DNA of 64,000 nt from an uncultured Methanomassiliicoccales archaeon (GCA_963755265.1 CAVWKV010000082.1:13203-77202); one strand, 5' to 3'. Counted from the first letter of the stretch, positions 19,611 through 46,517 are shown. Program-made: numbers and translations. The notes: a model not told the origin generated them from the sequence alone.

Positions 19611-19796
19611 ATGGACATCGAGAAAGAGAAATGCCAGGTATGTGGCGGGCAGGCAACGCAATTCGTTTTCGCCGCCTTCGTGTGCAACAAAGAGGACTGC
19701 GTGGAGAAGGCCAGGCTGGAGCGGGGTGGCCCCGGCGGACATATGAAGAACAAACATTCAGCTCCGATTATTCAGATCGAAGACGAGAGGAATTAG
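19611..19796 (+). CDS. small Cys-containing hypothetical protein
   Basis: 61-aa ORF MDIEKEKCQVCGG...CNKEDC, with GGGAGGGG just upstream of ATG 19611. TAG stop. No family recognised. Confidence 0.3.
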   Translation: MDIEKEKCQVCGGQATQFVFAAFVCNKEDCVEKARLERGGPGGHMKNKHSAPIIQIEDERN

Positions 19797-27772: not shown

Positions 27773-27845
27773 GGGCTCGTGGTCTAGCGGTTATGACGTT
27801 TGCCTCACACGCAGAAGGTCGCCGGTTCGAATCCGGCTGAGCCCA
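27773..27845 (+). tRNA. tRNA-Val (anticodon CAC)
   Basis: Hand-folded cloverleaf. Acceptor GGGCTCG/TGAGCCC, anticodon stem TTTGC/GCAGA with loop CTCACAC, T-arm GCCGG-TTCGAAT-CCGGC, discriminator A. CCA is not encoded. Confidence 0.9.
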
Positions 27846-27884
27846 CTTATCACTCTATCCAGACAATTATTATTTGAATTCAAT

Positions 27885-28143: not shown

Positions 28144-28339
28144 TCCCGTGAAAGCCAAGATAGCTCATCGAATAATTTCTGGCAAGCTTCATCTTGTTCC
28201 CAATTACTAAGTCCCGGTCCTGGTGAAAATTTCAAACCCTGGCTATACTTCCTAAGTTAGGCCAAACTAATATGAACATGACCTGAAGATTATTGCCTCT
28301 ACAAGGATGCGTTACTCAGGTCCAGCATTCTGTCCTGGC

Positions 28340-28897
28340 CTATTTCTTGAGTCCTTTGCCCATCGAGAACGCCTTGCCGATGACTTCTCCAATGTGGCAA
28401 TAACTAGAACCTGAGAAGACGATCGGGTCGATCTTTTCGGTATCTGGAGCCCCACCCGTCATGCAATCTCGAGCTACATGAACATCAATGACCTCGCCGA
28501 CGTGTAGGTTGTGGCTGCCTAGTTCGAGGGTGTGGCGGAGCTCGCACTCGATGTTGACTGGAAAATCAAGTATCAGTGGAGCTGTCTTGAGCTTGCCATA
28601 GAACGTATCAAAGAGTTTGGACTTATCGACCTTGCTCCCTGAGACTAGACCACAGTAGTCGGTTTCCACCGCGTTCTTGCCGCCTGGAATATTAACACTG
28701 AAGGTCTTGTTCTCTAGAATGCCTTTCTCGGTGTATCTTACCTTGTTGATGGCTATGGCAATCATCGGAGGTTCCATGCACGCGACCCCTACCCAGGCTG
28801 CGGTCATGAAATTGGGTTTTCCTTTGACATTAGAGCCGACCAGCACTGCCGGCATTGGCGTCATGTAAGGTCTGGGACCTAGCGTTACTTTTTCCAT
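28340..28897 (-). CDS. flavin reductase-like (FMN-binding split-barrel) domain protein
   Basis: MTPMPAVLVGSNVKGKPNFMTAAWVGVACMEPPMIAIAI...TFSVNIP pattern of flavin reductase domain proteins. Confidence 0.8.
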   Translation of the reverse strand: MEKVTLGPRPYMTPMPAVLVGSNVKGKPNFMTAAWVGVACMEPPMIAIAINKVRYTEKGILENKTFSVNIPGGKNAVETDYCGLVSGSKVDKSKLFDTFYGKLKTAPLILDFPVNIECELRHTLELGSHNLHVGEVIDVHVARDCMTGGAPDTEKIDPIVFSGSSYCHIGEVIGKAFSMGKGLKK

Positions 28898-29344
28898 ATC
28901 AATACCTCTGCATGTCTAAAATATCGACATCGTTGATATTTAGATTCTTAGAATAAGGAGATGCTTCAATGTAGATTCAATCTTCAAAATAAATAGGGAA
29001 GAGGCCATTCACTTGGTTCTCTTAATGAATGTGTGATTTTGGATCTCAATAAATGCCTCATCCGTTTTTTCCTTCGATAACTGAATGAGATTGTCAACAA
29101 ATTAACCGCCGACGAGAGAATTCACAATGCGGTCCCTCCCATCGTTATCCTATGGTCGTGGTCCGAGACTTGGCGGGAGAAAATGCTTCCCGGATCCCGA
29201 GAATCCCTCCTTTGGCCCAGGGACAGGGAGAAAACGAGGTTCAAGGTCGACCTTAGCCCCTGAACCACATCAATTATAATCATTGGAACGGGCCCTTATA
29301 TTCCCGATTCGAACTAGCTGGTTAATGGATGATCCGGAGCTTCC

Positions 29345-29364
29345 ATATCTCTGGCCAGAGATAT
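29345..29364. repeat. perfect 20-bp palindrome ATATCTCTGGCCAGAGATAT
   Basis: Self-complementary when read by hand. Lies about 90 nt upstream of the RR-PAS-kinase ATG. Confidence 0.6.
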
Positions 29365-29451
29365 TAGGTCGGAGGATCAGATGGTGTTCATTCTAAATAG
29401 AGACCTCAAGGAGAGTCCATAAATACGCCCACCCATCTATGATTCGGTCAC

Positions 29452-31398
29452 ATGTCAAATCTTCCGATTAAGGTCTTGGCCGTTGATGACGAGCCTGACC
29501 TAGGCATCCTTTCCAAGGAGTTCTTGGAAGTGTCCGGAGACATCGAGGTCGACGTCATCTACTCAGTTCGTGAGGCCAGGACAGCCCTGTTAGAAAAACG
29601 ATACGACGCAATCGTTTCCGATTACCAGATGCCAGATGAGGACGGCATACAATTTTTAAAATCTTTACGGGTTGTTGGCGATAATATCCCATTCATCCTT
29701 TTTACTGGCAAAGGGCGGGAGGAGGTGGTCATCGAGGCTCTGAACAATGGAGCTGATTCGTATCTCCAAAAAGGTGGTATGCCGGCTCCTATGTATGTCG
29801 AACTTGCCCACCGTATTCGTACGGCTGTGCGCAAATACCAGACGGACAAGGAAGTGGAACAGAGGAACATGAAGTTGCAGATCGCCAACAAGGAATTGGC
29901 GGCGGCGAAGCTGGAATTGAGCTCTCAACTGGATGAGATCCGCATCGGTAATGAGGCGATGGCGGTGGCTGAGGAAGAACTGAGAACGAGCGAATCAAGG
30001 TATCGCAGCCTGTTCGAAGGCATGTCAAACGGGGCAGCGGTCCACCAGATCATATGCGATGATGATGGAACGCCTGTCGACTATCGTTTCCTAGAACTTA
30101 ACGCAGCGTTCGAGAGCATTACGGGATTGAACCGAACCGAGATACTTGGAAAGACCGTATGCGAGGTCTTGAAGGAAGTGGAGCCGATATGGATCAAACG
30201 GTATGGGCAAGTGGCCCTGACAGGCGTTCCAGATCACTTTGAAAGTTACGCCCATGCCTTGGACCGTTCCTATGAGGTTTCCGTTTATCGGAATGCACCG
30301 ATGCAATTCACCGTCATCATCACCGATGTCTCAGTCCGGAAGAAGGCAGAGGATGCTCTTCGTATGAGCGAAGAGAAATTCAAGGCGATTGCAGAATATG
30401 CGGCAAGCTGGGAATCCTGGTTCAATCGGGATGGAGAATTATTATGGATGAACTCTTATTCAACAACTCTGACTGGTTATACGCCAGAAGAGTACATAAT
30501 CGCCAAAGACTTCGTTTCCATGGCGATAGCGGAGGAAGACCGTCAAGAAGCAAGCAAGTGGATCCATGAGGCGATCCAGGGCAGCAGTGGCGATAACCTG
30601 GAGCTGCAGGCATTACGCAAAGACGGCTCCAAATTCTGGATATCCATTTCCTGGCGGCCGATTCTGGATTCGAATGGGCGTTCACTAGGTTTCCGGACCA
30701 GTTCACAGGATGTCTCAGAAGGTAAACGGGCCGAAGAGGCATTGAAGCAAGCGAGCCTCAAGCTAGGAATGTTGAACAGCATAACCAGGCATGATATCCT
30801 TAACCAGATGCAGGTCCTCACTGGATACTTGGCACTGATCAACCTTCGGGAAAAGGATCCTGAACTGGTAGCCTATCTGGATAAAATGTCCCGAGCGGCC
30901 ACCAACGTACAACAGCAGATCGCTTTCACAAAGGACTATCAGGACATAGGAAGTCAAGCACCGATCTGGGTATCGATTGGTCGCCAGACCGCAGAGGCCT
31001 TTGTCCAGCTACACCTGAAAGGTGTGGCGTTGGAGGAAAGGACCGAAGGGATCGAGATCCTGGTCGATCCGTTGGTCATGAAGGTGCCATACAATCTGAT
31101 CGATAACTCCATGCGGCATGGGGAGCACGTCAACCGGGTCAAGATGAGCATTGAGCAGATCGGTGGTGCTATGATGATTATTTATGAGGACAATGGAGTA
31201 GGCATCGGCTCTGAGGATAAGGAACGAATCTTCAATAAGGGGTACGGCAAGAATACTGGCCTCGGGCTATTCCTGATTCGAGAGGTGCTTGCTATCACCG
31301 GGACCACCATCAAGGAATGTGGACAGCCCGGAACCGGCGTCCGGTTCGAGATCACGGTGCCTCCTGGGAGCTGGAGGCGTACCGGACATGAACGATAG
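29452..31398 (+). CDS. hybrid response-regulator receiver / PAS / histidine kinase
   Basis: REC domain (VLAVDDEP...VSDYQMPDEDG...TGKG), coiled linker, two PAS-like regions, H-box ITRHDILNQ, and an HATPase domain (DNGVGI...GLGLFLIREV...GTGVRFEITVP). Confidence 0.85.
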   Translation: MSNLPIKVLAVDDEPDLGILSKEFLEVSGDIEVDVIYSVREARTALLEKRYDAIVSDYQMPDEDGIQFLKSLRVVGDNIPFILFTGKGREEVVIEALNNGADSYLQKGGMPAPMYVELAHRIRTAVRKYQTDKEVEQRNMKLQIANKELAAAKLELSSQLDEIRIGNEAMAVAEEELRTSESRYRSLFEGMSNGAAVHQIICDDDGTPVDYRFLELNAAFESITGLNRTEILGKTVCEVLKEVEPIWIKRYGQVALTGVPDHFESYAHALDRSYEVSVYRNAPMQFTVIITDVSVRKKAEDALRMSEEKFKAIAEYAASWESWFNRDGELLWMNSYSTTLTGYTPEEYIIAKDFVSMAIAEEDRQEASKWIHEAIQGSSGDNLELQALRKDGSKFWISISWRPILDSNGRSLGFRTSSQDVSEGKRAEEALKQASLKLGMLNSITRHDILNQMQVLTGYLALINLREKDPELVAYLDKMSRAATNVQQQIAFTKDYQDIGSQAPIWVSIGRQTAEAFVQLHLKGVALEERTEGIEILVDPLVMKVPYNLIDNSMRHGEHVNRVKMSIEQIGGAMMIIYEDNGVGIGSEDKERIFNKGYGKNTGLGLFLIREVLAITGTTIKECGQPGTGVRFEITVPPGSWRRTGHER

Positions 31399-31458
31399 AT
31401 TTCATACCGTTGTTTTCAGAAATTAGCTTAATTATCTTCAGCCTGCATACCAGCTGTT

Positions 31459-31877
31459 ATGACGCTGGATGGAACCTTCACCCACCTGGCGAAGCTCACC
31501 ACGAATCGGTTGTACCTTCGCCAAATGCGGATCGATGATACCGACGCGGTCTACGCATTCAAGTCCGATCTGAAGGTAACATGGCGCTATGGCTAGCAAC
31601 CTCATGGAACAAAGGAGGAGATAAAGGCACGGATCCAACGAAGGGTGACGGACTTCGGACGCCGTGACTCCGTCTTCTGGGTGATGACCTCAAGGACGAG
31701 GATATCGCGATCGGCGGTTGCTGCTTCTGGAACTTCAGCCTGGATTTCAAGTGTGCAGAGATCGGTTACGAACTTCACCAAGTTTATTGGAACAAAGGTC
31801 TAATGATCGAAGCTGTGAAGGCGGTCCTTTCCTTCGGGTTCGATGAAATGGGTTGTAGCAATTTGAACCTTATATGA
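31459..31877 (+). pseudogene. GNAT (RimJ/RimL-like) acetyltransferase, 5' part, decayed
   Basis: TTNRLYLRQMRIDDTDAVYAF...IAIGGCCFWNF...AEIGYELHQVYWNKGLMIEAVKAVLSFGFDEMG. Lesions are an in-frame TAG at 31594-31596, a 1-nt frameshift near 31680, and truncation before the N..S...GF..EG C-terminal block. Confidence 0.7.
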
Positions 31878-32005
31878 TGTAAAAGACCGGAGTCTTCTTT
31901 TTCTAGATTAATGACAAGTGTTTGGATCGATCAAGAGTAGCCGATCTGCGGAGAGTCAATATAACAAAGCATTTTATATTCCACTTCTCATTCATATGAA
32001 ATTTA

Positions 32006-33775
32006 ATGTGCATACATATGATTAATAATATTCATAATAAGATGCAGAAAAAGCAAATGAAGTTGAGAGTTGCATCCAGGACACTAATAAGCAGTGTTTA
32101 TAAAGATGCATTAAGCACGATAGCGGTATTGAGTGGTGAAACTGCAAGTGACAGTGTGAATTGGAGCGAACCTGAAAATCAGGGTGTTATGATAGTTTTA
32201 ACCGCTTCGAATCTTGAGATGAGTGATTTTAATCTTAATCCGTTTTTAGCATTCGCCGGTGGTTTTCCCCAATTCTTAGTACAAAAAAATCTTTATCCTT
32301 CATTGCCCTCGAACCCAGATGGAACGGCCAAGTTCGCTCCCTATGGTTTGAGAAAGGTCGAATCGTTACTAATCGAGGAGTTCGGGGAGGAGAACGTTGT
32401 TGTTTCGAGCCCTAAAAACCTCCATAAATTCATAGGAACGGGGACGAAGGTCATAGGCATCTCCACCATGGACCCGCTGGGGACGGGTTTTGTAAGCCGG
32501 ACCTATACCAGCATTCTCGGCCTAAATGGAAAACCAGCCACTATGGTCGAATTTGAAGACCTGCTTTCTAATCCATTACTAAAAGAAAGCAAGGCCTGGA
32601 TCATCGTAGGCGGTTCAGGCGCATGGCAAATTCCGGAAGCAAACATGCAAGAGGCCCTTGGCATCGACACTGTTGCCGTGGGCCAGGCGGAACGCTCACT
32701 CGTCCAAATATTCAGAAAGGCATTGGCAGGCGAAGAACTGAGCAGCAAAATAACAATGCAGGTACCATCGCACGAGGAGATTCCACAAATAAAGAAGGCG
32801 TCGATCTATGGTACAGTGGAGATTATGAGGGGTTGCGGGAGGGGTTGTTCTTTCTGCTCTCCAACGCTTCGACAGCGTTTCTCATTCCCTCAAGATCGCA
32901 TTCTAAAGGAAGTGGAGATGAATGCGAGAAATGGCACCAGGATGATCATGCTGCAGACAGATGACCTCTTCTTATACCAAGCAAAGTCCAACTTCATTCC
33001 CAATAGCGAGGCGATAGTCGACCTTATCCATGCAGTGGACGGGGTCGCAGGTGTCGAATATCTGCAGGTGGCCCATGCATCACTTGCACCTATGGTCTAC
33101 GACCAAAAACTCGTTGAAGCGATCGCGCCAACATTGGTCGATAAGTCCGTATGGTCATTAAAGGGCGATCGTTACGCCTCCATAGAAGTAGGAATCGAGA
33201 CCGGTAGTGCCCGCCTCATGAAGCAACACATGCGCGGCAAGATGCTGCCATATAAGCCGGAACAATGGCAGGACGTGGTCGTCAAGGCCGTTGAGATAAT
33301 GAATGACAATAGTGTCTACCCTTTGGCAACGCTCATACTTGGCCTGCCAGGAGAACAACCGGACGATGTGCTCGCTACAATCGATCTCCTGGACCGGTTG
33401 GAGGGCTCCAAAATATTCTATGTTCCCCTTCTTTTCACCTCCGAAGAGGAATCAAACCTCAGGCAACAGAAACACGGAAACCTAAAGAACTTGGATGGCC
33501 CCCAATGGGAAGTCATATCAAGATGTTGGAAGCACAACATCGATGTCTGGAGCCCCGAATTGAGCACGCCGGTTATGCTGGCCAGTCTTCTCTCGTATCC
33601 CCTTTATAGATTGAAACACGGGAAGAAGATCTTCGAACCCATCATGAGAATATCTGGATTGGAGGAGAGGTTCTTGGGCAGGAAAGTGGGGGTAAAATGT
33701 CAACCGGCCTATTGTACTCCTAATCTTGAGCTCGTTGAAGAGAATGGGGTGGAATCTTGCCGGAAAACGCAATAA
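32006..33775 (+). CDS. radical SAM protein with large N-terminal Rossmann/B12-binding-like domain (paralogue A1)
   Basis: IMRGCGRGCSFCSP (CX3CX2C), GIETGSARLM, ILGLPGEQPDD. Collinear with ORF 37678-39273. The true start may be an internal Met. Confidence 0.8.
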   Translation: MCIHMINNIHNKMQKKQMKLRVASRTLISSVYKDALSTIAVLSGETASDSVNWSEPENQGVMIVLTASNLEMSDFNLNPFLAFAGGFPQFLVQKNLYPSLPSNPDGTAKFAPYGLRKVESLLIEEFGEENVVVSSPKNLHKFIGTGTKVIGISTMDPLGTGFVSRTYTSILGLNGKPATMVEFEDLLSNPLLKESKAWIIVGGSGAWQIPEANMQEALGIDTVAVGQAERSLVQIFRKALAGEELSSKITMQVPSHEEIPQIKKASIYGTVEIMRGCGRGCSFCSPTLRQRFSFPQDRILKEVEMNARNGTRMIMLQTDDLFLYQAKSNFIPNSEAIVDLIHAVDGVAGVEYLQVAHASLAPMVYDQKLVEAIAPTLVDKSVWSLKGDRYASIEVGIETGSARLMKQHMRGKMLPYKPEQWQDVVVKAVEIMNDNSVYPLATLILGLPGEQPDDVLATIDLLDRLEGSKIFYVPLLFTSEEESNLRQQKHGNLKNLDGPQWEVISRCWKHNIDVWSPELSTPVMLASLLSYPLYRLKHGKKIFEPIMRISGLEERFLGRKVGVKCQPAYCTPNLELVEENGVESCRKTQ

Positions 33776-33866
33776 ATCGGGCCGATATGGCCAAGAGGGG
33801 GGCTTCGATTGGTATTATGCCATGGCCACTCGCCGCAGGAAACTGCCTTGCTGTCGTTAGGCGGGG

Positions 33867-35801
33867 GTGAAATTAGTCATGCCGTTCAATAAGATACTCC
33901 TGATCAAACCTTCCGGCAGGCATGGCCTCTCCTATGCATTCGACCTGATTCCCACTGGGCTTGAATATTTGGCAGCCGCAGTCGAGGATGTAGTGGAGGA
34001 TGTGACCATCTTAGATGTAGAGATGGACCGCCGACCTTTCCAACAGGCTGTTGAAGAGTCCCTGATTGCCATGGACCCAGACCTTGTTGGGATAACGATG
34101 TCAGCCACAGAGCATAGCCAAGGTCTTGAGATAGCACGTTTAGCCAAGAGTCGAGGGGCCGCGACCGTATTGGGCGGATATCATCCCACCGCCATCCCAG
34201 ATGAGCTTCTATCCCACCCCCAGGTGGATTTAGTGGTCCGGGGTGAGGGTGAGATGACCTTGCGCGAACTAGTGATAAAGGGAGATGCTCAGGGGGTACC
34301 GGGACTCTCATACAGGATGGATGATCGAATCATCCACAACCCAGATAGAGAGTTCATTAAGAACTTGGACAGCCTGCCTTTTCCCGCTCGGCACCTAAGG
34401 AAGCATGTCTATAGTACAAGACTGATGCGAGACCGGGATTATGATGTGCTGACAACATCCAGAGGGTGTTGGGGCAAATGCACTTTCTGCTGTGAACCGA
34501 CAGTAAGCAGGGGCCATCAACGTTTCCGTTCTCCCGAGAACGTGATGAAAGAGATATTGGAAATCGTCTCTTTCCATGACCACAGGCCTCTCAGCATAGA
34601 TGTCACGGACCCTCATTTTCTCGGCAGTCCAAAACATGTGGAGCGGCTATGCGACCTATTGGCCCAGCAAGAGTTTGACATTCGGTTCGGGGTCAAGGTA
34701 CGGGCAGACTCTGTAGCGAAGCACCCAGACATAGTACGGAAAATGATCGCTGTGGGGATAGAGGGTTTCGAGATGGGTATAGAAAGTCCAAACATGGAGG
34801 ATCTCAAATCGATATCCAAGGGCTTGAGTACAGATGTTCACATCCAAGCGGTCAATAATATCAAAAAATGGGGTGGTAATGCTGGCGGGACCTTCGTTAT
34901 TGGTCTTCCCGATCAGACGGAAGAGCAGATACTCGGATTCCCCACATACGCCAAGAAGATCGGTCTTACGAGCACAGCCTATGGCATCGCCACACCTTTT
35001 CCCGGAACGCAGTTCTATGAAGAGCTGAATGCTCAGGGTCTGATCATTGAAACCGACTGGAATCGCTACGATGAGATGCACGCAATATTCGCGTCCAAGC
35101 ATCTCTCCGCTGAACGAATCGAAGAGTTAGCATCCATCTGCATGGCTAGATTCTGGACCGTGGATATGTTCATAGAAAAGGAACGGATGCATGTAATTAG
35201 GAATTTGTCTAAAAGGTCTCTTGCTAAGTTCGTTGATGACAAGATGCAGGAGCTTAGTTTCTCGCTAGATATGGGATCCCAACTTCAGAATGAAAACCTG
35301 GGAAAACACGTCTTGTCTGTAATAGAAGCGTCTGCAGACCCCTGCGTGGAAAGATATACCAGGGAAGTGGGCGTTCATAACATCATTGATATGGCCCTGC
35401 TCCTAAGATTGATCGGCAATCAAACGGTGCAGCTTACAGTGAATAACAATGAGATAGCTGTCACGAGCTGGATAATTAAGACTTCACGAACGGGTGTAGA
35501 ATATATCCAGGTGATCCCAGGAAAATCGGATTTGGCAACGATCAATCTGAACGTTGATCTGGACGATTTCGAGTTCGGTGGAGGCCGAGATCTGAACATT
35601 ATCGATAGCATTCGCATAGCAGGTAGAATGGTCACCTCGGATCGGAGTATCGATAATCAGACGAATTTGGCCCGATTGATCACGGCCTGTGGCCTCGAGT
35701 TAGTAAAGTATCTATTATGCGAGCCTAGAATCGCAGTTCCAGTCATTGTTAGGTCGAGGATTGGATGTCTAAAAGACAAAATCTTGACCCAGGAATTATG
35801 A
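33867..35801 (+). CDS. B12-binding-domain radical SAM protein (class-B-like)
   Basis: The N-terminal domain LLIKPSG...PTGLEYLAAAV...DLVGITMSATEH...VLGGYHPTA...VVRGEGE resembles the cobalamin-binding domain. It is followed by TSRGCWGKCTFC and a ~200-aa C-terminal extension. Confidence 0.85.
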   Translation: MKLVMPFNKILLIKPSGRHGLSYAFDLIPTGLEYLAAAVEDVVEDVTILDVEMDRRPFQQAVEESLIAMDPDLVGITMSATEHSQGLEIARLAKSRGAATVLGGYHPTAIPDELLSHPQVDLVVRGEGEMTLRELVIKGDAQGVPGLSYRMDDRIIHNPDREFIKNLDSLPFPARHLRKHVYSTRLMRDRDYDVLTTSRGCWGKCTFCCEPTVSRGHQRFRSPENVMKEILEIVSFHDHRPLSIDVTDPHFLGSPKHVERLCDLLAQQEFDIRFGVKVRADSVAKHPDIVRKMIAVGIEGFEMGIESPNMEDLKSISKGLSTDVHIQAVNNIKKWGGNAGGTFVIGLPDQTEEQILGFPTYAKKIGLTSTAYGIATPFPGTQFYEELNAQGLIIETDWNRYDEMHAIFASKHLSAERIEELASICMARFWTVDMFIEKERMHVIRNLSKRSLAKFVDDKMQELSFSLDMGSQLQNENLGKHVLSVIEASADPCVERYTREVGVHNIIDMALLLRLIGNQTVQLTVNNNEIAVTSWIIKTSRTGVEYIQVIPGKSDLATINLNVDLDDFEFGGGRDLNIIDSIRIAGRMVTSDRSIDNQTNLARLITACGLELVKYLLCEPRIAVPVIVRSRIGCLKDKILTQEL

Positions 35802-36017
35802 GTAATAAGTGAATCTACGGTCGGACAGTATGGGAAGTTGCGTAATGTTACCTGTTACCATAGAGATATCCGTCCGGTATGCACTTAGGCACATCGACGG
35901 GAAGATTGATGGATTATTGAATTGAATCGGATCGCGAGGAAATCTAATTGGGATTTCAAATCGGTTGGTTTAAATGAACAATCAAGCTTCGCCCATCATT
36001 AAACCGACTGTCCAGGC

Positions 36018-36398
36018 TTATCGGGTTGCCTTTGAGGACTCGATTACTTTAGTAATGTCGTCAATCATGTTGTTGATTTTGTCTTCTATCTTTTCCCACG
36101 CTTCTTGAATCTGTACAGATTGATAAACATACTTCAATCGCGTCCCTTGCTCGACCCTTTTTGTCACCAGCCCCTCTTCTTCCAACCTTTTGATATACTT
36201 TCTTATTGATCTTTCCGAGATGTCCATCTGCTCCTCTATCTCTTTAATGGTAAACGAGGTCTTCAATAACAAATCGTAAATCTTGACTTCCACCGTGCTA
36301 AGGTTAAGAAATTCTAGGACGACGTTGAAAACATCAATCGGCTTGCCTTTCCGATTGAGCGCATTTTCAATATCGCCTATATAGTTGCCTTTGGCCAT
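36018..36398 (-). CDS. TrmB-like winged-helix transcriptional regulator
   Basis: VEVKIYDLLLKTSFTIKEIEEQMDISERSIRKYIKRLEEEGLVTKRV resembles the TrmB N-terminal HTH. Confidence 0.7.
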   Translation of the reverse strand: MAKGNYIGDIENALNRKGKPIDVFNVVLEFLNLSTVEVKIYDLLLKTSFTIKEIEEQMDISERSIRKYIKRLEEEGLVTKRVEQGTRLKYVYQSVQIQEAWEKIEDKINNMIDDITKVIESSKATR

Positions 36399-36627
36399 AA
36401 ATAGGATAATGGAAGCAACACTATTAGATATTTCATACGTAGGAAAATATTGACGTTGGAATGGACAGTTTCTCTATGGTTGTCTGATCGAACAAGATTC
36501 TTATCCGTGTGTTCTACCTTTATAAATTAATAATGAATTGGAGCGCCCGAATTCTTGGCGATACAGGAATTTTATTGATCACATCAGCATTGACATTTTA
36601 CTAATCTGGAAATTGTGGATTGAACAT

Positions 36628-36759
36628 ATGAAGAAATATTTTCATATATATGTAGTGTATTATGCAATTATAATCGGCGTGATAGCATCGACCATTTCAA
36701 TGATACGTGTGGAGCATCGCTCTCAGCCGTTTCAGATGAACTGTCAGGTAAAAAAATGA
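36628..36759 (+). CDS. possible 43-aa small hydrophobic peptide
   Basis: ATG 36628 gives MKKYFHIYVVYYAIIIGVIASTISMIRVEHRSQPFQMNCQVKK, with one TM-like helix. No SD seen. It could be non-coding. Confidence 0.2.
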   Translation: MKKYFHIYVVYYAIIIGVIASTISMIRVEHRSQPFQMNCQVKK

Positions 36760-36891
36760 ACGAATCCTTTTGACATTCAAACAACAAGGATTGAGACTGA
36801 CTTTGCCTAACAGGGATTCATGATGTGTGTCGCGATGGAAGTCGATTAAAAAGAGGGATTAATAGTGCCGAACGAGGGAGTCTCATTTTTT

Positions 36892-36928
36892 AATATTAAG
36901 ATACGAAATATTAAGACGAGATTTAAGA
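36892..36928 (+). promoter_or_regulatory. three direct repeats AATATTAAGA / AATATTAAGA / ATTTAAGA with about 15-nt period
   Basis: Copies read at 36892, 36907 and 36921, immediately upstream of ATG 36952. AT-rich and TATA-like; candidate operator or promoter. Confidence 0.4.
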
Positions 36929-36951
36929 CCAGGTCGTTTTGCCGAAGTCAG

Positions 36952-37626
36952 ATGATTCGCCGAGACGACAATACGGCACATCATTTGTTATTACTCATGA
37001 TAGTTGCTGGCACGACATCAATAATTGCACTGCTCATCATGGCCAGCAATCCGACTTACTTTTTTGTTTCATTATTAGCAGGAGCGGCTTCCATGGTCAT
37101 CGATTTCGTGGTCGAATATGCTGGAATCCGAAGAAAGAAATGGGATTACCCCGGGGCTTGCATAGGATTAACGTTCCGGAATGTGCCATTGGAGGTGCCG
37201 CTCCTTTTCTATTTCTGTGGAATATTCGCCACCTTCGTTACCTTTCTCGTCTCAGGGCAATCTGTTAGCACCATATTCTCATATCAAGTGGTTGCCGGGC
37301 TTGACCCGGTTCAAATTATCCTGTTAATCATAGCTTCTTTCTTTCTTATCCAATATTCATTAGGTAAGATCAAGACCTTGGTCTTTTGGACCCTTCCGCT
37401 CAGCATTACGCTATACATATCCTTTCCAGAGCCCTGGTTATTAGCAATCTCGATCATTCCCATTTACCTAGATTATTATCTTGAAAAGCAACTGGTGAAG
37501 TCCTCAGATATCGCGTATAATGGTTATGATGAAGATGTCGCGATCAATATCGCCAACAGTTACTTTCCTACCACACTCTTGATCCTGGGGATTGTAGCGA
37601 TGCTCCTGCACGTCCTAGCAATATAA
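36952..37626 (+). CDS. polytopic membrane protein with lycopene-cyclase-domain-like motif
   Basis: MVIDFVVEYAGIRRKKWDYPGACIGLTFRNVPLEVPLLFYF resembles the D..E..G....W.Y....PLEE..FF pattern of the CrtYc/d lycopene cyclase domain. About 6 TM helices. The track start GTG 36865 would include the repeat region. Confidence 0.55.
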   Translation: MIRRDDNTAHHLLLLMIVAGTTSIIALLIMASNPTYFFVSLLAGAASMVIDFVVEYAGIRRKKWDYPGACIGLTFRNVPLEVPLLFYFCGIFATFVTFLVSGQSVSTIFSYQVVAGLDPVQIILLIIASFFLIQYSLGKIKTLVFWTLPLSITLYISFPEPWLLAISIIPIYLDYYLEKQLVKSSDIAYNGYDEDVAINIANSYFPTTLLILGIVAMLLHVLAI

Positions 37627-37677
37627 AATATCAGAAGGACCAATATTTTAGGTTTGAACCAGTGAGGAGGTTATCAA

Positions 37678-39273
37678 TTGAAAGAAAACGGTGGATATCC
37701 GATTGTGCTGACAGCCGATCGAACTTTGATGAGTGAATATGGTGGCAGCATCTTCCTCGGCTTCAGCGCCGTGGTGCCGGAAAAATGGGCCCCAGAATCG
37801 ATCTATTTCTCCTTGTTCTGTCCTCCGGTCGAGGTCAACAAAGATGGTTCAGTAATAGTAGCGCCGTGCGGGACCAGGAAAATTGAATCCATCCTTTTAC
37901 ACGGAGGTTTCACCAAAAAGGACGTTATCGTGGCTCATCCTGAGCACCTCGACAAGGTGATTGGACCAGACACCAAGGTCGTGGGATTCACGGAGAATGA
38001 TCCGCTGGGAATCGGACCAGCCACGTCCACTTTTACCGGCATTTTCAAAGGCGAAGCCTATATGAAAATCAAGTTCCGGGAGGTTCTGAACCATCCTGCG
38101 ATCTTGAAATATAAGCCGAATATCGTCGTCGGCGGTCCGGGAGCATGGCAGCTGGCCGATGCTGCAGTACGGAAGGAATTGGGAATTACGACCGTTGTCC
38201 TCGGTGAGGGGGAAATGGTGGTCCCCGAATTATTCAAAAGAGCGGTCAGGGGTGAGACGTTACCGGGAATAGTCATGGGGGAAGTGACCCCTATAGATCG
38301 TATAGCTTTGATCGAAGAGGCCACAGTCGACGGTCTGGTCGAGATTTCCAGGGGATGCGGCAGGGGATGCGACTTCTGTATGCCTACCATGGCGAAGTAC
38401 CGCAGCCGTGAAATCAAAGATATTATTTCTGACGTAAAGGTCAACCTTGCGGCGGGCAGGCAGCCATGCCTTCATGCAGAGGACGTGGTCCGTTACGGGG
38501 CTAAGAAGATCGAGGTCGACCCGAAGCAGCTGATCAGTCTGTTCCAGGCGGTAAGCGAGGTTCCGGGGGTGACCCGGATGACCATATCGCATTTCGCCCT
38601 GGCATCGGTCGCCAGCGCCCCAGACGAGATGAAAACCATCTCTGATATCATGAGGGTCACCGAGAAGCAATGGATGTCCGGCCAGACTGGAATCGAAACA
38701 GGAAGCCCCGAACTGATGAAACGCTACATGATCGGCAAATGCCGACCGTTCGAACCGGATGCCTGGCAGGAAACCGTGGTCAGCGGTTATAAAATCCTGA
38801 AGAAGAATCACTGGATTCCCTGTGCCACCCTGATCATGGGACTACCTGGTGAGACAGAGAAGGATGTGGACATGACGATTGAGCTGGTTAAGAAGATTAA
38901 CGGTTATAGTTCACTAATGGTGCCCTTGTTCTTTGTCGCTATGGGTGAGCTTAACAACGACGAGAAATCGTTCACCGTTGAACAAATGAGCAAGGCACAT
39001 GCTAAATTGTTCCTGGATTGCTGGGAGCACAATCTTAAGTGGTCACCGGCAATAATCGATGACTGGGCCCAACGTAGCATACGCAATCCGATGGCTCGCC
39101 CCGCACTAAAACTAATCCTAAAATTCGGCATAACCGAAGGAATGGAACTAATCCGCATGTGTCGGAAGGATTACGACTACGATGTCCAGGCATTCCTAGA
39201 CGACGGGCGAAAGGGTAACGTTAAGATCCTGCCTCTGACGATACGTGCGTTCGGGCACTTGGTTGGACAATAA
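37678..39273 (+). CDS. radical SAM protein with large N-terminal Rossmann/B12-binding-like domain (paralogue A2)
   Basis: ISRGCGRGCDFCMP (CX3CX2C), GIETGSPELM, IMGLPGETEKD. TTG start preceded by GGAGGT. Confidence 0.8.
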   Translation: MKENGGYPIVLTADRTLMSEYGGSIFLGFSAVVPEKWAPESIYFSLFCPPVEVNKDGSVIVAPCGTRKIESILLHGGFTKKDVIVAHPEHLDKVIGPDTKVVGFTENDPLGIGPATSTFTGIFKGEAYMKIKFREVLNHPAILKYKPNIVVGGPGAWQLADAAVRKELGITTVVLGEGEMVVPELFKRAVRGETLPGIVMGEVTPIDRIALIEEATVDGLVEISRGCGRGCDFCMPTMAKYRSREIKDIISDVKVNLAAGRQPCLHAEDVVRYGAKKIEVDPKQLISLFQAVSEVPGVTRMTISHFALASVASAPDEMKTISDIMRVTEKQWMSGQTGIETGSPELMKRYMIGKCRPFEPDAWQETVVSGYKILKKNHWIPCATLIMGLPGETEKDVDMTIELVKKINGYSSLMVPLFFVAMGELNNDEKSFTVEQMSKAHAKLFLDCWEHNLKWSPAIIDDWAQRSIRNPMARPALKLILKFGITEGMELIRMCRKDYDYDVQAFLDDGRKGNVKILPLTIRAFGHLVGQ

Positions 39274-39274
39274 C

Positions 39275-39403
39275 CGTAATGCGCATATCCTTGCCGAGTT
39301 TTCTCGTTTCTCCTTCACAGGCGAGGCAGGCCACCTCCTCTCCCACTCGAGAATTGTCGCGCATGTTGTTCTATTCAGTCCTCTACTTACATTCGGCTCA
39401 TAG
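39275..39403 (+). pseudogene. possible 3' remnant of the same GNAT gene
   Basis: Reads RNAHILAEFSRFSFTGEAGHLLSHSRIVAHVVLFSPLL. The N-x4-A-x3-R-x2-F-T-x-E spacing matches the N..S..A...R.GFT.EG block of RimL/YdaF-type GNATs, and the combined length with 31459-31877 is about 178 aa. The similarity is weak. Confidence 0.3.
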
Positions 39404-39463
39404 CTGATGAAGGCACCTTGAAGGTACCTTTTTTCCGGGGAATGCCGTCAACTTCCTTCCTTA

Positions 39464-41401
39464 TCACATTCCCAAAGCTTTCCTCTTCTCCTCGATGTGG
39501 TCAGAAATCAGTGCCGCTGCGTTCTTCGGGTTCGGCTCCACCCAGAACTTGGCATGGACCAGCCCTTCGAGATCTTCGGTCAATGCCTTGACGACATTGG
39601 GGCTTCCAGCAATGTGGGGCATGACGCCTAATACCACGCTGACCCCGCTACCGACGAAATAAGTGCCGATAGCCACTGCCTTGGGCGAATACCACTCAGG
39701 CGCCGCGCCGACGACCGGCAATTGGTCGATCCTTACGCCGGCCGTTTTGGCTAGCTCCGCCACCAATACGAGTATCCTACTGTTATCCACGCACGAACCC
39801 ATATGCAAAACGGGCGGTATGCCCAATGAACCGCAGACCTCTTTTAACCCCGGTCCAGCCTGGTCGATGGACTTCGGCTGCAACAACCCGGCCTTGGCAC
39901 ATGCAATGGATGAGCAGCCAGTCTCGACGCACAAAATGTCGCGTTTGATCAGCTCTTTCGCCAGTGTCACATGTCCATAGTCATGCTTGATGCGGGGATT
40001 ATTACATCCAACGATCCCGGCGCATCCTCTTATCTTGCCGGAAACGACCGCATCCAGCAAAGGTTTCAGAGTGCCCCCCAGAGCCTTTCGTATCGATTCG
40101 ACGGAGAATCCCACCATGGCATCGACCGGTGCCTCAGGTATCAGTACCCGCTCCTTCACGCGGTTGGGGTAATTGTCAATCGCTGCGTTCAGGATCCTCT
40201 TCGATTGCTCGAAGGCATTCTCTGGCGTTATCTCTACGAAATAACTGCCTTGTATGACCGCCTTGGGCGAAGTTGTGAACAGTTTTGTGTGATAACATGA
40301 GGCAGTGTTCGCCAGAGTCGGGAATATGCACTGGTAGTCGACGACCATGGCCTCGAGTGCTCCCGTGGTTATGACCAATTCCTGGTCCAGATGATTGCCA
40401 GCCTGGGGTATCCCCTTGCGCATCAGCAGTTCGTTCCCCGTGCAGCACAATCCGACCAAATTGATGCCATTGGCGCCCACAGCCTTCGCCCGGGCGATCA
40501 TTTCCGGCAAGTTCGCCACTCTGACGATCATTTCGGAGAGGATCGGGTTATGGCCGTGGAGCGATATGTTCACCTGGTCATGCTTGAGCACCCCGAGGTT
40601 GACCCTGGAGTTCTTTATTGTGGGGGTGCCGAACAGTACGTCCGAGATCTCAGTACCCATCATCGAGCCGCCCCAGCCATCTGCCATCGAGGCCCGCATA
40701 CCCTGTAACAAGAACCCTGAGTAGTCCGCACCGACTCCCATATGGACGCGGTGCATCGCTTCCACAATCTCACGGTCTATGCTTCTAGGTAAAATACCCG
40801 CAGATCTCCAGAGATCGACGCATGCTTCGGGAGCCCTTTTGGGCATCTGCATTTCGCCCTTGATGGTGCCGAACTCTTCCAGCATGGCCAATGCAACCTT
40901 CTCTGCCTTTTGGTTTATGGAGTCGGATCCTGGTACTCCAAACTCGGTGGCCAGGAGCTTCAGTTTCTCCTCGTCTTTTACTGCGTAACCTGGTGCTTTC
41001 CCTCTGGCTGCCTTTAGAAGCGTCTCGACCACTTCCCTCCCATGGTCAGAATGGGAGGCGGCGCCGGTCGCCATTGTGTCGAGGAGGTTCCTGGCCACCA
41101 TTAGGTCGGCATCGGCTCCGCACACGCCTCGGGTTCGATCTCCGCCCATGAGTCGGCACGGGCCCATGGCGCATCGTTGACAGGATATTCCCTCCGTGCA
41201 GAACTTGCATTGCGGCTGTTGCCGTTCGAACCTGTCCCAGACAGTGTCGGTCCCTTCCTTCATCGTCTTTCTCAGGACATCCTGCGTGGATTTGTCCAAT
41301 GCCCGTTCTTTGACCTTTTCTTCGATTTCATCGGGCTTGAACTTTTTGATCGGAACCCTCAGGCACTCTACAGAATTGATCTCCGGTAGGTCATCCTCCA
41401 T
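39464..41401 (-). CDS. cooS: anaerobic carbon-monoxide dehydrogenase catalytic subunit
   Basis: CKFCTEGISCQRCAMGPCRL...GVCGADADLMVARN N-terminal cluster motifs and a conserved CooS body (HGHNP, GLCCTGNE, GSCVDN). Confidence 0.9.
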   Translation of the reverse strand: MEDDLPEINSVECLRVPIKKFKPDEIEEKVKERALDKSTQDVLRKTMKEGTDTVWDRFERQQPQCKFCTEGISCQRCAMGPCRLMGGDRTRGVCGADADLMVARNLLDTMATGAASHSDHGREVVETLLKAARGKAPGYAVKDEEKLKLLATEFGVPGSDSINQKAEKVALAMLEEFGTIKGEMQMPKRAPEACVDLWRSAGILPRSIDREIVEAMHRVHMGVGADYSGFLLQGMRASMADGWGGSMMGTEISDVLFGTPTIKNSRVNLGVLKHDQVNISLHGHNPILSEMIVRVANLPEMIARAKAVGANGINLVGLCCTGNELLMRKGIPQAGNHLDQELVITTGALEAMVVDYQCIFPTLANTASCYHTKLFTTSPKAVIQGSYFVEITPENAFEQSKRILNAAIDNYPNRVKERVLIPEAPVDAMVGFSVESIRKALGGTLKPLLDAVVSGKIRGCAGIVGCNNPRIKHDYGHVTLAKELIKRDILCVETGCSSIACAKAGLLQPKSIDQAGPGLKEVCGSLGIPPVLHMGSCVDNSRILVLVAELAKTAGVRIDQLPVVGAAPEWYSPKAVAIGTYFVGSGVSVVLGVMPHIAGSPNVVKALTEDLEGLVHAKFWVEPNPKNAAALISDHIEEKRKALGM

Positions 41402-41586: not shown

Positions 41587-43401
41587 TTAGCCCAAACCGA
41601 GCTCATTTTTCCTTAGTTCGATCCGTTCCTTAACGTCCTTGGACATCTCTATCTCGTCCGGCCATTCCCGGGGATGTCCGTCGGCGAGCCCCTTCTTGGT
41701 CGCATCAATGATGACGCCGTTCCTGACCAGCTCTATATCCCGAAGTGGGTCGACGTTATTGAAAGCCTTCCACAGGACCAAAGAGCTGTCCTTGAGGTCG
41801 ATGTCATCGTAAAGTACCAGGATGCATCCGAGCGATGATGCTATCGGCCTGAACATCTCCCGGATGAGCTTCGAGCTGAGCCCCTCTTTCTTCACACTCA
41901 CCAGAACCGCCGGGTTCCTGGTGTGCAGGCCGGCCGATCTGGAGGAGACCGCAACCTTCGATCCCCTGATCGCCCCCAGAATGTCCTCTTCGTTCAGCTC
42001 ATTGTCATCACAGAGCCTCCTAGTCGGCTCTCCCTCAAATCTCTCGGTCGCATCTATGCCTAATTTTCCCCCGAAAAGAGGATGGGGCGCTGAATGGTCC
42101 AGTACATCAAGGACACCTTCTGTCATAACCAGATCTTGTGTCAGGTCCAGATTCTCCTGGATCTTTTCCAATAGCAGTGAAGGGTTCTTTAGCAGTGTGG
42201 GGTCGTCAACGACCACGATCATCTTGGCAAAGCTCATCTGGTTGTTGCCCCACAAGGCATTCATGACCTTACGGGCCTGCATCGGATATTCCTTGTGTAT
42301 CGCCACCACGACTATGTTATGGAAAACTCCCTCCCAGGGCATCCAGTAGTCAATGATCTCAGGCAAGACCAGCTTCAAGGGCGGGAGGAATATGCGCTCC
42401 GTGGCCTTGGCTATATAACAGTCCTCCATCGGAGGCCTGCCGACCACTGTGGCGCTATAGACGGCGTTCTTACGGTGCGTTATCGCCGTCAAATGGAACA
42501 CTGGATACTCTCCCTGCAACGAATAATACCCGGTATGATCGCCAAACGGTCCCTCCAATCGCTTCTCCTCCGGATCGACATAGCCTTCCAGAACGAACTC
42601 TGACTCGGCCGGGACCTCCATGTCTACGGTCTTGCATTTGACCATGTCCACCGGAGAACCTCGGATGAAGCCCGCAAGGATCATCTCGTCCATACCCTGT
42701 GGCATCGGTGCGGTGGCAGCATACGTGATGGAAGGGTCGGTGCCTATGGCAACAGCCACAGGCATTCTTTTCCCTTGCTTTTTGTAAGCATTGAAATTAT
42801 GTTTCCCGTCCTTGTGGACGTGCCAGTGCATGCCGGTCGTCCTCTTGTCGAAGATCTGCATGCGGTACATGCCAGCATTTCTGGAGCGTCCGTCTATGTC
42901 CTTAGTGAACACGACCGGTAGAGTGACAAACCGGCCGCCGTCCTTAGGCCAACATTGTAGGATAGGGATTTGGTCAAGATCGATGTCTTCACCGGTTAGG
43001 ACAACTTCCTGGCAAGGCGAGTGAGACTTGCTTTTAGTTCGAGGGAACGACTTGGAAAGGGAATACAATTCGGGCAGCATGCCCATTTTTCCAATGAGGC
43101 CATCCGGCAGCTTTGTGGCAAGCAGTCCTTCGACCTTCTTCTCCATCTCCTCCAGGCTATCGCAGCCTAGTGCCATGGCCATCCTGCGTTCGCTGCCGAA
43201 GGCGTTGGTTAATACAGGGAACGATGAACCGGTCACCTTTTCGAAAAGAAGGGCCTTTCCACCTTTCGGACTCTTGGACACGCGGTCTGTGATCTCCGTG
43301 ATCTCAAGGTTTGGCGATACCTCTCCCTTTATGCGGATGAGTTCCCTTTCCCTGTCCAGCCTGGAAATGAAATCCTGGAGATTGCGGTAATGCATTTTCA
43401 T
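41587..43401 (-). CDS. ubiD: UbiD-family (prenyl-FMN-dependent) decarboxylase, long form
   Basis: MKMHYRNLQDFISRLDRERELIRIKGEVSP N-terminus and a conserved UbiD body. Start set at ATG 43401, which overlaps the upstream TGA; the 77-codon upstream extension in the track looks spurious. Confidence 0.85.
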   Translation of the reverse strand: MKMHYRNLQDFISRLDRERELIRIKGEVSPNLEITEITDRVSKSPKGGKALLFEKVTGSSFPVLTNAFGSERRMAMALGCDSLEEMEKKVEGLLATKLPDGLIGKMGMLPELYSLSKSFPRTKSKSHSPCQEVVLTGEDIDLDQIPILQCWPKDGGRFVTLPVVFTKDIDGRSRNAGMYRMQIFDKRTTGMHWHVHKDGKHNFNAYKKQGKRMPVAVAIGTDPSITYAATAPMPQGMDEMILAGFIRGSPVDMVKCKTVDMEVPAESEFVLEGYVDPEEKRLEGPFGDHTGYYSLQGEYPVFHLTAITHRKNAVYSATVVGRPPMEDCYIAKATERIFLPPLKLVLPEIIDYWMPWEGVFHNIVVVAIHKEYPMQARKVMNALWGNNQMSFAKMIVVVDDPTLLKNPSLLLEKIQENLDLTQDLVMTEGVLDVLDHSAPHPLFGGKLGIDATERFEGEPTRRLCDDNELNEEDILGAIRGSKVAVSSRSAGLHTRNPAVLVSVKKEGLSSKLIREMFRPIASSLGCILVLYDDIDLKDSSLVLWKAFNNVDPLRDIELVRNGVIIDATKKGLADGHPREWPDEIEMSKDVKERIELRKNELGLG

Positions 43402-44105: not shown

Positions 44106-44150
44106 CTTGTCACTCCTTGAGGGTTTTGAGTTTGGCTCCGTCTACCGAAT

Positions 44151-46513: not shown

Positions 46514-46517
46514 TCTT

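Follow-up and report, generated by a model that had tools for sequence, protein, structure and literature searches.

A truncated acetyltransferase pseudogene beside a radical SAM gene cassette in an uncultured Methanomassiliicoccales archaeon

The question raised by this locus is whether a cassette carrying three radical SAM genes was inserted inside the coding sequence of a GNAT acetyltransferase, leaving half of the gene on either side. A preliminary description of the window (the whole stretch of 64,000 nucleotides analysed here) had claimed this split, with a 5' half at 31459-31877 and a 3' half at 39275-39403. Such a split would have provided exact insertion junctions and a case for a gene-disrupting mobile radical SAM element, but the claim fails. 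The GNAT gene is very probably a decaying pseudogene that lost its end through a later deletion, and the cassette an insertion beside the gene that did not split it. The features on which this reading is based are listed in Table 1.

Table 1. Coordinates of the features at the GNAT-CooS locus, counted from the first nucleotide of the window.
Feature	Position	Strand	Evidence or remarks
Hybrid response-regulator/PAS sensor histidine kinase, conserved left flank	29452..31398	+	NCBIfam and Pfam matches
GNAT pseudogene remnant (RimJ/RimL-type, Acetyltransf_3)	31459..31852	+	Pfam, lineage profile, DNA alignment
In-frame TAG, GNAT codon 46	31594..31596	+	CAA/CAG (Gln) in intact orthologues; also in sister lineage L001
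1-nt deletion, frameshift	31687..31688	+	In window, not in L001; DNA alignment, column 230
Deletion junction	31852..31855		blastn break points against L001
Rest of MFS/radical SAM 1 intergenic (promoter) region	31855..32005		~91% identity to L001 from 12129 to radical SAM 1 start
Radical SAM protein 1, 589-aa ORF (585 aa as called from 32018)	32006..33775	+	Pfam Radical_SAM, BLASTP
B12-binding radical SAM protein, 644 aa	33867..35801	+	Pfam B12-binding (PF02310) E=6e-20, Radical_SAM (PF04055) E=1.9e-14
TrmB/Lrs14-type winged-helix transcription regulator, 126 aa	36018..36398	-	Pfam TrmB E=1.2e-9; NCBIfam Lrs14 and Sta1 below cutoff
Multi-pass membrane protein, rare family, 253 aa	36865..37626	+	All-helical predicted model
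Radical SAM protein 3, 531 aa	37678..39273	+	Large uncharacterised archaeal family: Methanomassiliicoccales, Bathyarchaeia, others
Non-coding spacer between convergent radical SAM 3 and CooS genes	39274..39463		No GNAT similarity; holds 39275-39403
83-bp segment, most of the claimed right half	39331..39413		In window and L074, missing from L001/L002
CooS, anaerobic carbon-monoxide dehydrogenase catalytic subunit, conserved right flank	39464..41401	-	NCBIfam TIGR01702, E=1.5e-202, above cutoff

The GNAT remnant and its supposed second half

The sequence to the left of the cassette is indeed GNAT-derived and truncated close to where the preliminary description placed its end, but it is not one open reading frame, and homology reaches only to 31852. 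Once repaired, the fragment matched Pfam Acetyltransf_3 (PF13302) over positions 1-117 of 138 (E=5.6e-23; 82.6 bits, cutoff 25.4). A lineage profile of 192 positions, made from 11 intact orthologues, matched it over positions 1-133 in three separate frame pieces (E from 5e-28 to 1e-9), so that the last ~59 residues, and with them the C-terminal third of the domain, are absent. Profile search and tblastn with GNAT tails found no match to positions 134-192 anywhere in the 64 kb. The reading frame is broken by the in-frame TAG and by the 1-nt deletion, and the last seven codons quoted for this half (CSNLNLI, before the stop) are not GNAT sequence: the frame runs into intergenic DNA by accident. 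Between the window and the sister contig L001, pN/pS is 0.35 in the GNAT remnant and 0.07-0.10 in the neighbouring genes, a comparison that rests on only 25 differences. Intact orthologues in related archaea are 58-75% identical to the left fragment and 188-203 aa long; the two supposed halves had been added up to ~178 aa, taken for a normal GNAT length, and fall short of this range.

The claimed right-half peptide sits in a real open frame (39245-39403) and had been thought to supply the missing GNAT block. Pfam gave no match to it at E<=10, and joining it to the left piece produced no longer alignment; the two fragments therefore do not cover contiguous, non-overlapping model positions, as the right one does not align at all. 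Against the lineage profile it scored -2.3 bits, even in a database of 19 pieces. Aligned with 12 genuine GNAT tails, the peptide had a Smith-Waterman score of at most 22, a value that 81% of shuffled peptides also reach. The best six-frame match to GNAT tails in 39274-39463 (score 37) is EGTLKVPFFRG at 39409-39441, a 12-residue match to the GNAT motif EGTLRERQFFRG. Such a score turned up in about 10% of shuffled sequences or random windows; the match is thus at chance level, but it adjoins cooS at a possible remnant position. Moreover, most of the claimed half consists of the 83-bp segment, flanked by GG(C)CACCT direct repeats, and indels relative to L001 disrupt the reading frame. Homology to empty-site relatives restarts only at 39456 (L005) or 39464 (L013, L009). 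The stretch 39275-39403 is strain-variable non-coding spacer with no detectable relation to GNAT.

The sister contigs and the deletion junction

Two sister contigs (L001 and L002), ~94% identical to the window and 92-99% identical over most of the region, carry the sensor kinase, a full-length GNAT, an MFS transporter gene on the minus strand, the same five cassette genes and CooS, in this order. Their GNAT lies wholly to the left of the cassette and reaches its natural end there, followed by the unrelated MFS gene; it bears the TAG and a late frameshift, which in L001 is a 1-nt insertion. Relative to L001, the window is without exactly 1,922 bp (L001 10207-12128), comprising the GNAT 3' end, the spacer, the gene for the 485-aa MFS transporter and 88 bp of DNA upstream of that gene. 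The GNAT truncation is a secondary deletion of these 1,922 bp; what meets at 31852/31855 is therefore the two sides of a deletion, not the edge of an insertion.

These contigs speak against a cassette inserted within the GNAT coding sequence, an explanation to which we give hardly any credence. The truncation falls approximately where a domain break would be expected, and relatives do have an uninterrupted GNAT at the locus. However, the right fragment aligns no better than shuffled sequence, the greater part of it is an indel missing from the sister lineage, and a whole GNAT stands to the left of the cassette in contigs that bear it. We rejected the split because both findings that the preliminary description had itself named as contrary to its claim were made: the right fragment gave no significant alignment, and the left fragment ends naturally in related contigs, with unrelated sequence downstream. 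Insertion junctions within a few nucleotides of 31872 and 39274 are equally untenable, the left break being the deletion and the right piece a spacer.

Alternatively, the left junction could have arisen through replacement by a divergent cassette allele that had no MFS gene, with one illegitimate end inside GNAT. A tract within 32250-34650 is only ~64-85% identical to L001 (~78% on average), compared with 92-99% on both sides, and recombination with a divergent cassette allele therefore did occur. Nonetheless, the junction and the start of this tract, to its right, are 250-400 bp apart. Just past the junction, the first 200 bp (31855-32052) are as similar to L001 as the flanks (92% over the first 200 alignment columns; 143 of 158 aligned bases in the intergenic region). 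As the DNA between them is flank-like in identity, junction and divergent tract are separate events, and allele replacement is a quite improbable origin of the junction.

Less probable still, and close to negligible, is that the junction is a chimeric join made during assembly, or that the TAG is read through as pyrrolysine and the GNAT still expressed. Members of Methanomassiliicoccales are known to use pyrrolysine, and the TAG is conserved in two lineages. Yet a 46-mer spanning the 31852/31855 junction occurs identically in three other assemblies from different runs (L074, L075 and L076). In addition, TAG is the ordinary stop of 7 of the 47 long ORFs in the window, among them the kinase gene just upstream, and the independent frameshifts in the window and L001, together with the lost C-terminal third, exclude a functional product.

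Cassette-free sites and the history of the locus

Copies of the cassette occur in the window, in L001 and L002 and in L074-L076; it is missing from L005 and L009-L013. Two of the latter have an empty site in which an intact GNAT is separated from CooS by a short spacer (192 aa and 80 bp in L005; 190 aa and 101 bp in L013), while L009-L012 hold only a 146-aa ORF between the two genes. The sensor kinase is syntenic in L001, L005, L009 and L012, and CooS in L001, L005, L009 and L013. The expectation of uninterrupted GNAT orthologues at a cassette-free locus is thereby borne out, as is that of an insertion relative to relatives. No insertion break point was found inside GNAT; since L001 and L002 keep the entire gene to the left of the cassette, the insertion point lies after its stop codon. 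We infer a lineage-specific gain of the cassette, which entered the GNAT-CooS spacer downstream of GNAT, rather than a loss elsewhere. The insertion can be placed only within the spacers (L001 10386-10582 on the left, 19791-19893 on the right), as empty-site relatives share only 73-83% identity and no alignment is obtained across their spacers.

In agreement with the preliminary description, we saw no terminal inverted repeats or target-site duplication: no repeat pairs the cassette ends, whether in L001 or in the window. When the five cassette proteins of the window were scanned with Pfam and NCBIfam, no integrase, transposase or other mobility protein came to light, and the sixth gene, present in L001, encodes the MFS transporter. 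The sole mobility-like signal was an IS630 helix-turn-helix match to the regulator that stayed below cutoff (18 bits, cutoff 100). No tRNA gene is adjacent; the only one in the window (Val, 27773-27846) lies 3.6 kb upstream of GNAT, beyond the kinase gene. In 500-nt windows, G+C content drops to 37-43% at 31750-32250 and 35750-37750, around the intergenic DNA of the cassette and the genes for the regulator and the membrane protein; in the remaining windows of the cassette it is 46-56%, and the flanks shown have 46-57%.

The opposite polarity, in which an ancestral cassette was lost from L005, L013 and L009-L012 (the GNAT truncation still being a secondary deletion), seems improbable. All relatives without the cassette stand at a similar distance (~80% nucleotide identity in cooS), and if they formed one clade, a single loss would be as parsimonious as a single gain. 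However, in every other genome sampled the orthologues of B12-radical SAM and radical SAM 3 (the latter 81-86% identical) are located elsewhere, without other cassette genes; for B12-radical SAM, none occurred within 10 kb of the orthologue in 52 of 52 genome loci tested. Three species (L018, L020 and L054) share a flavin-reductase-like gene ~2.9 kb downstream of it, and in OW818644.1, the genome with the empty site L005, it is found ~370 kb away (L018). Furthermore, a four-gene core of the cassette (radical SAM 1, B12-radical SAM, TrmB regulator and membrane protein) recurs in unrelated contexts in L077 and L078. The probable polarity of gain thus depends on parsimony and on gene locations in other genomes.

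The observed gene orders, break points, lesions and missing GNAT tail suggest the following order of events. Relatives have the order sensor kinase, GNAT and convergent cooS. A block of ~9.4 kb with six genes (MFS transporter, radical SAM 1, B12-radical SAM, TrmB-type regulator, rare membrane protein and radical SAM 3) would have entered the short spacer between the GNAT and cooS stop codons in an ancestor shared by the window and L001/L002. A CAG-to-TAG nonsense mutation probably arose in the ancestral GNAT, either before or after the arrival of the block, and the gene would have decayed since. The late 1-nt insertion in L001 and the 1-nt deletion in the window may have followed. Finally, a single 1,922-bp deletion in the window would have taken away the GNAT end (~180 bp), the spacer and all of the MFS gene, so that GNAT codon 131 now abuts the radical SAM 1 promoter region. 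For annotation, this means that 31872 and 39274 are not the ends of a cassette element, and that the peptide at 39275-39403 is not a gene fragment. What emerges is a well-documented variable locus, in which the spacer is empty or holds a small ORF, a 9.4-kb cluster or a shortened 7.6-kb cluster, together with a dated series of lesions within one pseudogene.

Cassette function and comparison with known systems

Radical SAM 1 and radical SAM 3 are paralogues (35% identity), and the exact radical SAM 1 protein is also found in L074-L076. The B12-radical SAM protein has class B features, namely B12-binding and radical SAM domains and a CxxxCxxC motif (CWGKCTFC). Its NCBIfam matches, including the similarity to HpnJ and BchE, are all far under the cutoffs; among solved structures, the MCR glutamine C-methyltransferase 9CCB comes nearest (E=1.6e-14). 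Relatives are spread across Methanomassiliicoccales, Bathyarchaeia, Methanobacteriota and Asgard archaea. The membrane protein has no Pfam or NCBIfam match and no annotated relatives, and its family comprises only 17 clusters among 5.8 billion proteins.

A tentative reading, which we consider possible but rather unlikely, is that the cassette is a lineage-specific operon modifying a membrane isoprenoid, for example by desaturation, methylation or backbone alkylation of tetraether lipids. The circumstantial basis may lie in the UbiA-type and geranylgeranyl-reductase-like genes that adjoin the core in L077, in the CDP-alcohol phosphatidyltransferase gene beside the radical SAM 3 orthologue in L073, and in the Ted-like spread of B12-radical SAM. 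The predicted operon would have been assembled from genes dispersed in other Methanomassiliicoccales, with radical SAM 3 and an MFS exporter added to its four-gene core in this lineage, and moved into the GNAT-CooS spacer. Here, three radical SAM genes whose counterparts are scattered in relatives are clustered with a regulator, which makes the cassette a sensible choice for functional work on archaeal membrane-lipid chemistry. The PDB contains a tetraether synthase structure; no such chain was retrieved with radical SAM 3 (E<=0.01) or with the radical SAM 1/radical SAM 3 family profile (E<=1).

Among B12-dependent radical SAM enzymes, Gmm, Cgm and Ted are modifiers of archaeal tetraether lipids, and an MFS transporter has been reported beside cgm (bioRxiv 10.1101/2025.10.20.683597). 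The cassette also has a B12-binding radical SAM protein, whose taxonomic spread resembles that published for the tetraether desaturase Ted, and its longer form likewise carries an MFS transporter. The likeness is one of domains, taxonomic spread (Ted) and gene context (cgm), and homology to Gmm, Cgm, Ted or Grs is at most putative. Compared with RimJ/RimL-type GNATs (PF13302), the left fragment is alike over the N-terminal 117 of 138 model positions, but the window copy is a pseudogene with a nonsense codon and a frameshift that has lost the C-terminal region in which an N..S...GF..EG block had been expected. Gene disruption by mobile elements or genomic islands offers a partial parallel, for here too a multi-gene block occupies a site that is empty in relatives, beside a damaged gene. 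In this case, however, the block lies downstream of the GNAT stop in the sister lineage, the damage is a later deletion, and a second gene half, target duplication, terminal repeats, integrase and transposase are all lacking. Closest is the decay and deletion of prokaryotic pseudogenes at variable (hot-spot) loci, matched here by the shared nonsense mutation, the lineage-specific frameshifts, the 1.9-kb deletion and the raised pN/pS. The same spacer is empty (L005, L013), holds a 146-aa ORF (L009-L012) or carries a long (L001) or shortened (window) cassette. Against that category nothing about the locus is unusual, and it is an ordinary case of pseudogene decay at a variable locus.

The GNAT remnant left of the cassette

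By its sequence the locus is an ordinary, variable one, in which a pseudogene cut by a secondary deletion lies beside an accessory gene cluster. The preliminary description had proposed a RimJ/RimL-type acetyltransferase (GNAT) gene with one half on either side of the cassette, and the observation behind it is confirmed only in part: a GNAT remnant is present on the left, but no GNAT end is found on the right. The left piece (31459-31877) was correctly recognized as a GNAT that lacks its end, although a nonsense codon and a frameshift had been overlooked. Translation of the window yields more than one ORF here. Frame 1 runs to a TAG (Table), GNAT-like sequence continues beyond it in the same frame up to about 31687, and frame 3 carries the gene onward from there (LKDEDIAIGG...FGFDEMGCSNLNLI, then a stop). 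The repaired translation of 139 aa aligns to positions 1-117 of the 138 of Pfam Acetyltransf_3 (E=5.6e-23), and it is a RimJ/RimL-type GNAT without its end. Intact orthologues from a database search (n=11; 188-203 aa, 58-75% identical) have tails of the form LHRIEANPL.TNE.S.RLL.KLGF..EGTLRERQ.F.GRFVDQMYFGLL..EW. Therefore, about 59 residues are gone from the GNAT of the window, rather than about 40. When a profile made from these 11 orthologues was searched against the full window in all six frames, only three pieces matched (Table); positions 134-192 were unmatched, the next best hit being elsewhere in the window (E=0.14).

Codon 46, where intact orthologues have CAA or CAG, is the TAG in both the window and the sister contig L001, and the mutation is thus older than their split. 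Later, independent lesions are a 1-nt deletion and a 1.9-kb deletion specific to the window, and a 1-nt insertion specific to L001. The order to which the window belongs, Methanomassiliicoccales, is known for the use of pyrrolysine. Pyrrolysine at this codon was nonetheless rejected: because TAG closes 7 of the 47 long ORFs, among them the kinase gene directly upstream, and the gene carries further lesions, we take the codon for a simple nonsense mutation. In the comparison of the window with L001, the GNAT remnant has a pN/pS of 0.35 versus 0.07-0.10 for the kinase and rSAM3 (small counts), as would fit relaxed constraint. The GNAT is a decaying pseudogene.

The left junction and the sister contigs

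Over most of the region the window shares 92-99% identity with two sister contigs, L001 (JGI, 65 kb) and L002 (ENA). Both run from the kinase through GNAT, a 485-aa MFS transporter (minus strand), rSAM1, B12-rSAM, the TrmB-type regulator (minus strand), the membrane protein and rSAM3 to the CO dehydrogenase gene CooS (minus strand). In both, the GNAT is full length in DNA and ends in ERHFFHGRFFDQMYFGLLDKEWGDRMAGK before its stop; it carries the same codon-46 TAG and, after EGALR, a 1-nt insertion. The entire GNAT therefore lies to the left of the cassette. Together with the missing HMM alignment of the right fragment, this refutes the view that the cassette splits the gene. From the break points relative to L001 (Table) it follows that 1,922 bp are missing from the window; this stretch takes in the 3' end of the GNAT, about 190 bp of spacer and the MFS gene with 88 bp of its upstream DNA. 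The junction reads GATGAAATGGG, TT, GTAGCAATTTGAACC, and the closing peptide CSNLNLI with its stop is a translation of the MFS/rSAM1 intergenic region. An identical junction 46-mer occurs in three more assemblies, L074 (99.99% identical to the window over 14.2 kb), L076 (99.94%) and L075 (97.9%); the left junction is real. In L075 (7434-9381) the kinase gene is called as two ORFs of 424 and 209 aa, and 13 gaps open in its alignment with the window; indel errors of long reads, and not biology, may be the cause.

Other differences from L001 were also observed. Most of rSAM1 and the N-terminal half of B12-rSAM (32250-34650) are about 64-85% identical to L001 (average about 78%) while the flanking DNA is 92-99% identical, and the tract looks like recombination from a third, more divergent cassette allele. 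At 28207, L001 and L002 hold 2,963 bp (L001 3597-6559) absent from the window and L075, encoding a Condensation-domain protein, a TetR regulator and a 99-aa ORF; the window's only tRNA gene (tRNA-Val, 27773-27846) ends 361 bp before this break. Additionally, at 35869/35871 the window is without 232 bp of L001 (16155-16386) between the B12-rSAM and regulator genes.

Features of the GNAT-CooS locus and related loci (window coordinates unless a contig is named)
Feature	Coordinates	Detail
GNAT frame 1 TAG	31594-31596	ends MTLDG...VTWRYG
GNAT profile piece	31432-31593	profile positions 1-45
GNAT profile piece	31597-31800	profile positions 47-80
GNAT profile piece	31668-31874	profile positions 78-133
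Match to L001, left of break	28207-31852	L001 6560-10206
Match to L001, right of break	31855 onward	L001 12129 onward
Extra segment relative to L001	39331-39413	83 bp; GG(C)CACCT direct repeats at its bounds
146-aa membrane ORF	L009 10711-11151; L012 4113-4553	also in L010 and L011
Four-gene core elsewhere	L077 637-3979; L078 1918-7763; L079 1580-7425	

The right spacer and the insertion site

The right fragment (39275-39403) had been proposed as the missing GNAT end. Open in one frame over 39245-39403, it lies within the 190-bp spacer between the rSAM3 stop (39273) and the convergent CooS stop (39464). Alone, it had no Pfam match at E<=10; fused to the left fragment, it did not extend the Pfam alignment (17-136 both ways, 82.6 vs 81.9 bits), and against the profile of 11 GNAT orthologues it scored -2.3 bits. 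Smith-Waterman alignment of the peptide to 12 real GNAT tails reached at most 22, equalled by 81% of shuffled peptides. Across 39274-39463 in any frame the top score was 37, a value that shuffles and random 190-nt windows reach in ~10% of cases, and tblastn of the 12 tails gave chance-level matches only, in the whole window as well as in 39200-39500. The proposal thus fails, with neither a Pfam nor a profile match and scores no better than shuffles. The best local tail match, EGTLKVPFFRG (39409-39441), was rejected: an equally good spurious match lies in rSAM3 on the opposite strand, and ~10% of shuffles equal its score. The bulk of the right fragment falls inside an 83-bp segment (Table) that, among all sequences fetched, occurs in the window and the near-identical L074 only and is absent from L001 and L002. 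The remainder (39275-39330) has frame-breaking indels relative to L001. No part of the fragment behaves as coding sequence. After the segment come a near-palindrome (GGCACCTTGAAGGTACC) and a T-run (39412-39434), which might act as a terminator; in a terminator scan of the right spacer nothing met the rule of the tool.

Cassette-free relatives lend support to the broader idea that the cassette is a lineage-specific insertion. In L005 (NCBI OW818644.1, a 2.55-Mb chromosome) a kinase gene is followed by an intact 192-aa GNAT, 80 bp, CooS, then UbiD and others. In L013, whose intact GNAT is the closest (75% aa identity), CooS (94% aa identity) follows after 101 bp, and the DNA homology to the window restarts exactly at the CooS stop, 39464. 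In four further relatives (L009-L012) only a conserved 146-aa membrane ORF without a Pfam family separates GNAT from CooS (Table), so that the spacer is a site of recurrent gene gain or loss; no remnant of this ORF was traced in the window or L001. Synteny on both sides is otherwise kept among these relatives. Relative to them the cassette is an insertion, and comparison of the sequences places it in the GNAT-CooS spacer. We found no direct or inverted terminal repeats or target duplication at the cassette ends, no mobility genes among its proteins and, in a tRNA scan of the window, no adjoining tRNA. We infer arrival by recombination rather than as a self-mobile element.

Cassette genes elsewhere and a possible lipid role

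A scan with the B12-rSAM protein, one genome per species, gave 58 loci. Identity to the orthologues is 69-81% for most genomes of Methanomassiliicoccales/Thermoplasmata (56% at L027), 48-55% for those of Bathyarchaeia and 37-42% for those of Methanobacteriota and Asgard archaea. None of the 52 loci tested (L014-L065) had another cassette gene within 10 kb, and in the genome with the empty site L005 the orthologue is about 370 kb distant (L018). Likewise, rSAM3 orthologues (81-86% identical) occupy other locations without the remaining cassette genes. Contigs with the rare membrane protein, a family of 17 clusters, carry a conserved four-gene core (rSAM1, B12-rSAM, TrmB, membrane protein), found in unrelated contexts at 59-76% protein identity (Table). 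Given these dispersed orthologues and other contexts of the core, the GNAT-CooS arrangement is most likely derived and lineage-specific.

In L077 the core is followed by a flavodoxin, a UbiA-type prenyltransferase and two FAD-binding proteins resembling geranylgeranyl reductases. In L073 (5637-11925) an rSAM3 orthologue (82-83% identical) adjoins another B12-radical SAM gene and is separated from a nearby CDP-alcohol phosphatidyltransferase gene by a 199-aa ORF, a TetR regulator and a 160-aa ORF; this neighbourhood hints at a link to membrane lipid synthesis. Downstream of CooS, 41587-47474 is conserved with L005 and encodes a UbiD-like decarboxylase, a UbiE-like methyltransferase, a UbiA-type prenyltransferase fusion and ABC transporter genes, which suggests a prenylated-aromatic or quinone-like pathway.

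rSAM1 and rSAM3 are paralogues (35% identical) of a large family in archaea, which has a Rossmann-like domain at the N-terminus and the motif RGCGRGCxFC. Among solved structures, the B12-dependent MCR glutamine C-methyltransferase 9CCB and MiaB/RimO come closest to them; identity as a tetraether synthase was rejected, as no such chain appeared in PDB sequence or profile searches. The 644-aa cassette protein has B12-binding and radical SAM domains. We make no claim to a lycopene-cyclase-like motif (W.YP...VPLEVP). No paper on a cluster of GDGT radical SAM genes in Methanomassiliicoccales was found in a literature search. A lipid role of the cassette might be hypothesized, and only that. Lipid methylases of the B12-radical SAM type are the subject of a recent preprint, together with a tetraether desaturase, and one of the methylases, cgm, often adjoins MFS exporters (10.1101/2025.10.20.683597). 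The taxonomic spread given there for the desaturase is similar to that of the cassette B12-rSAM (10.1101/2025.10.20.683597).
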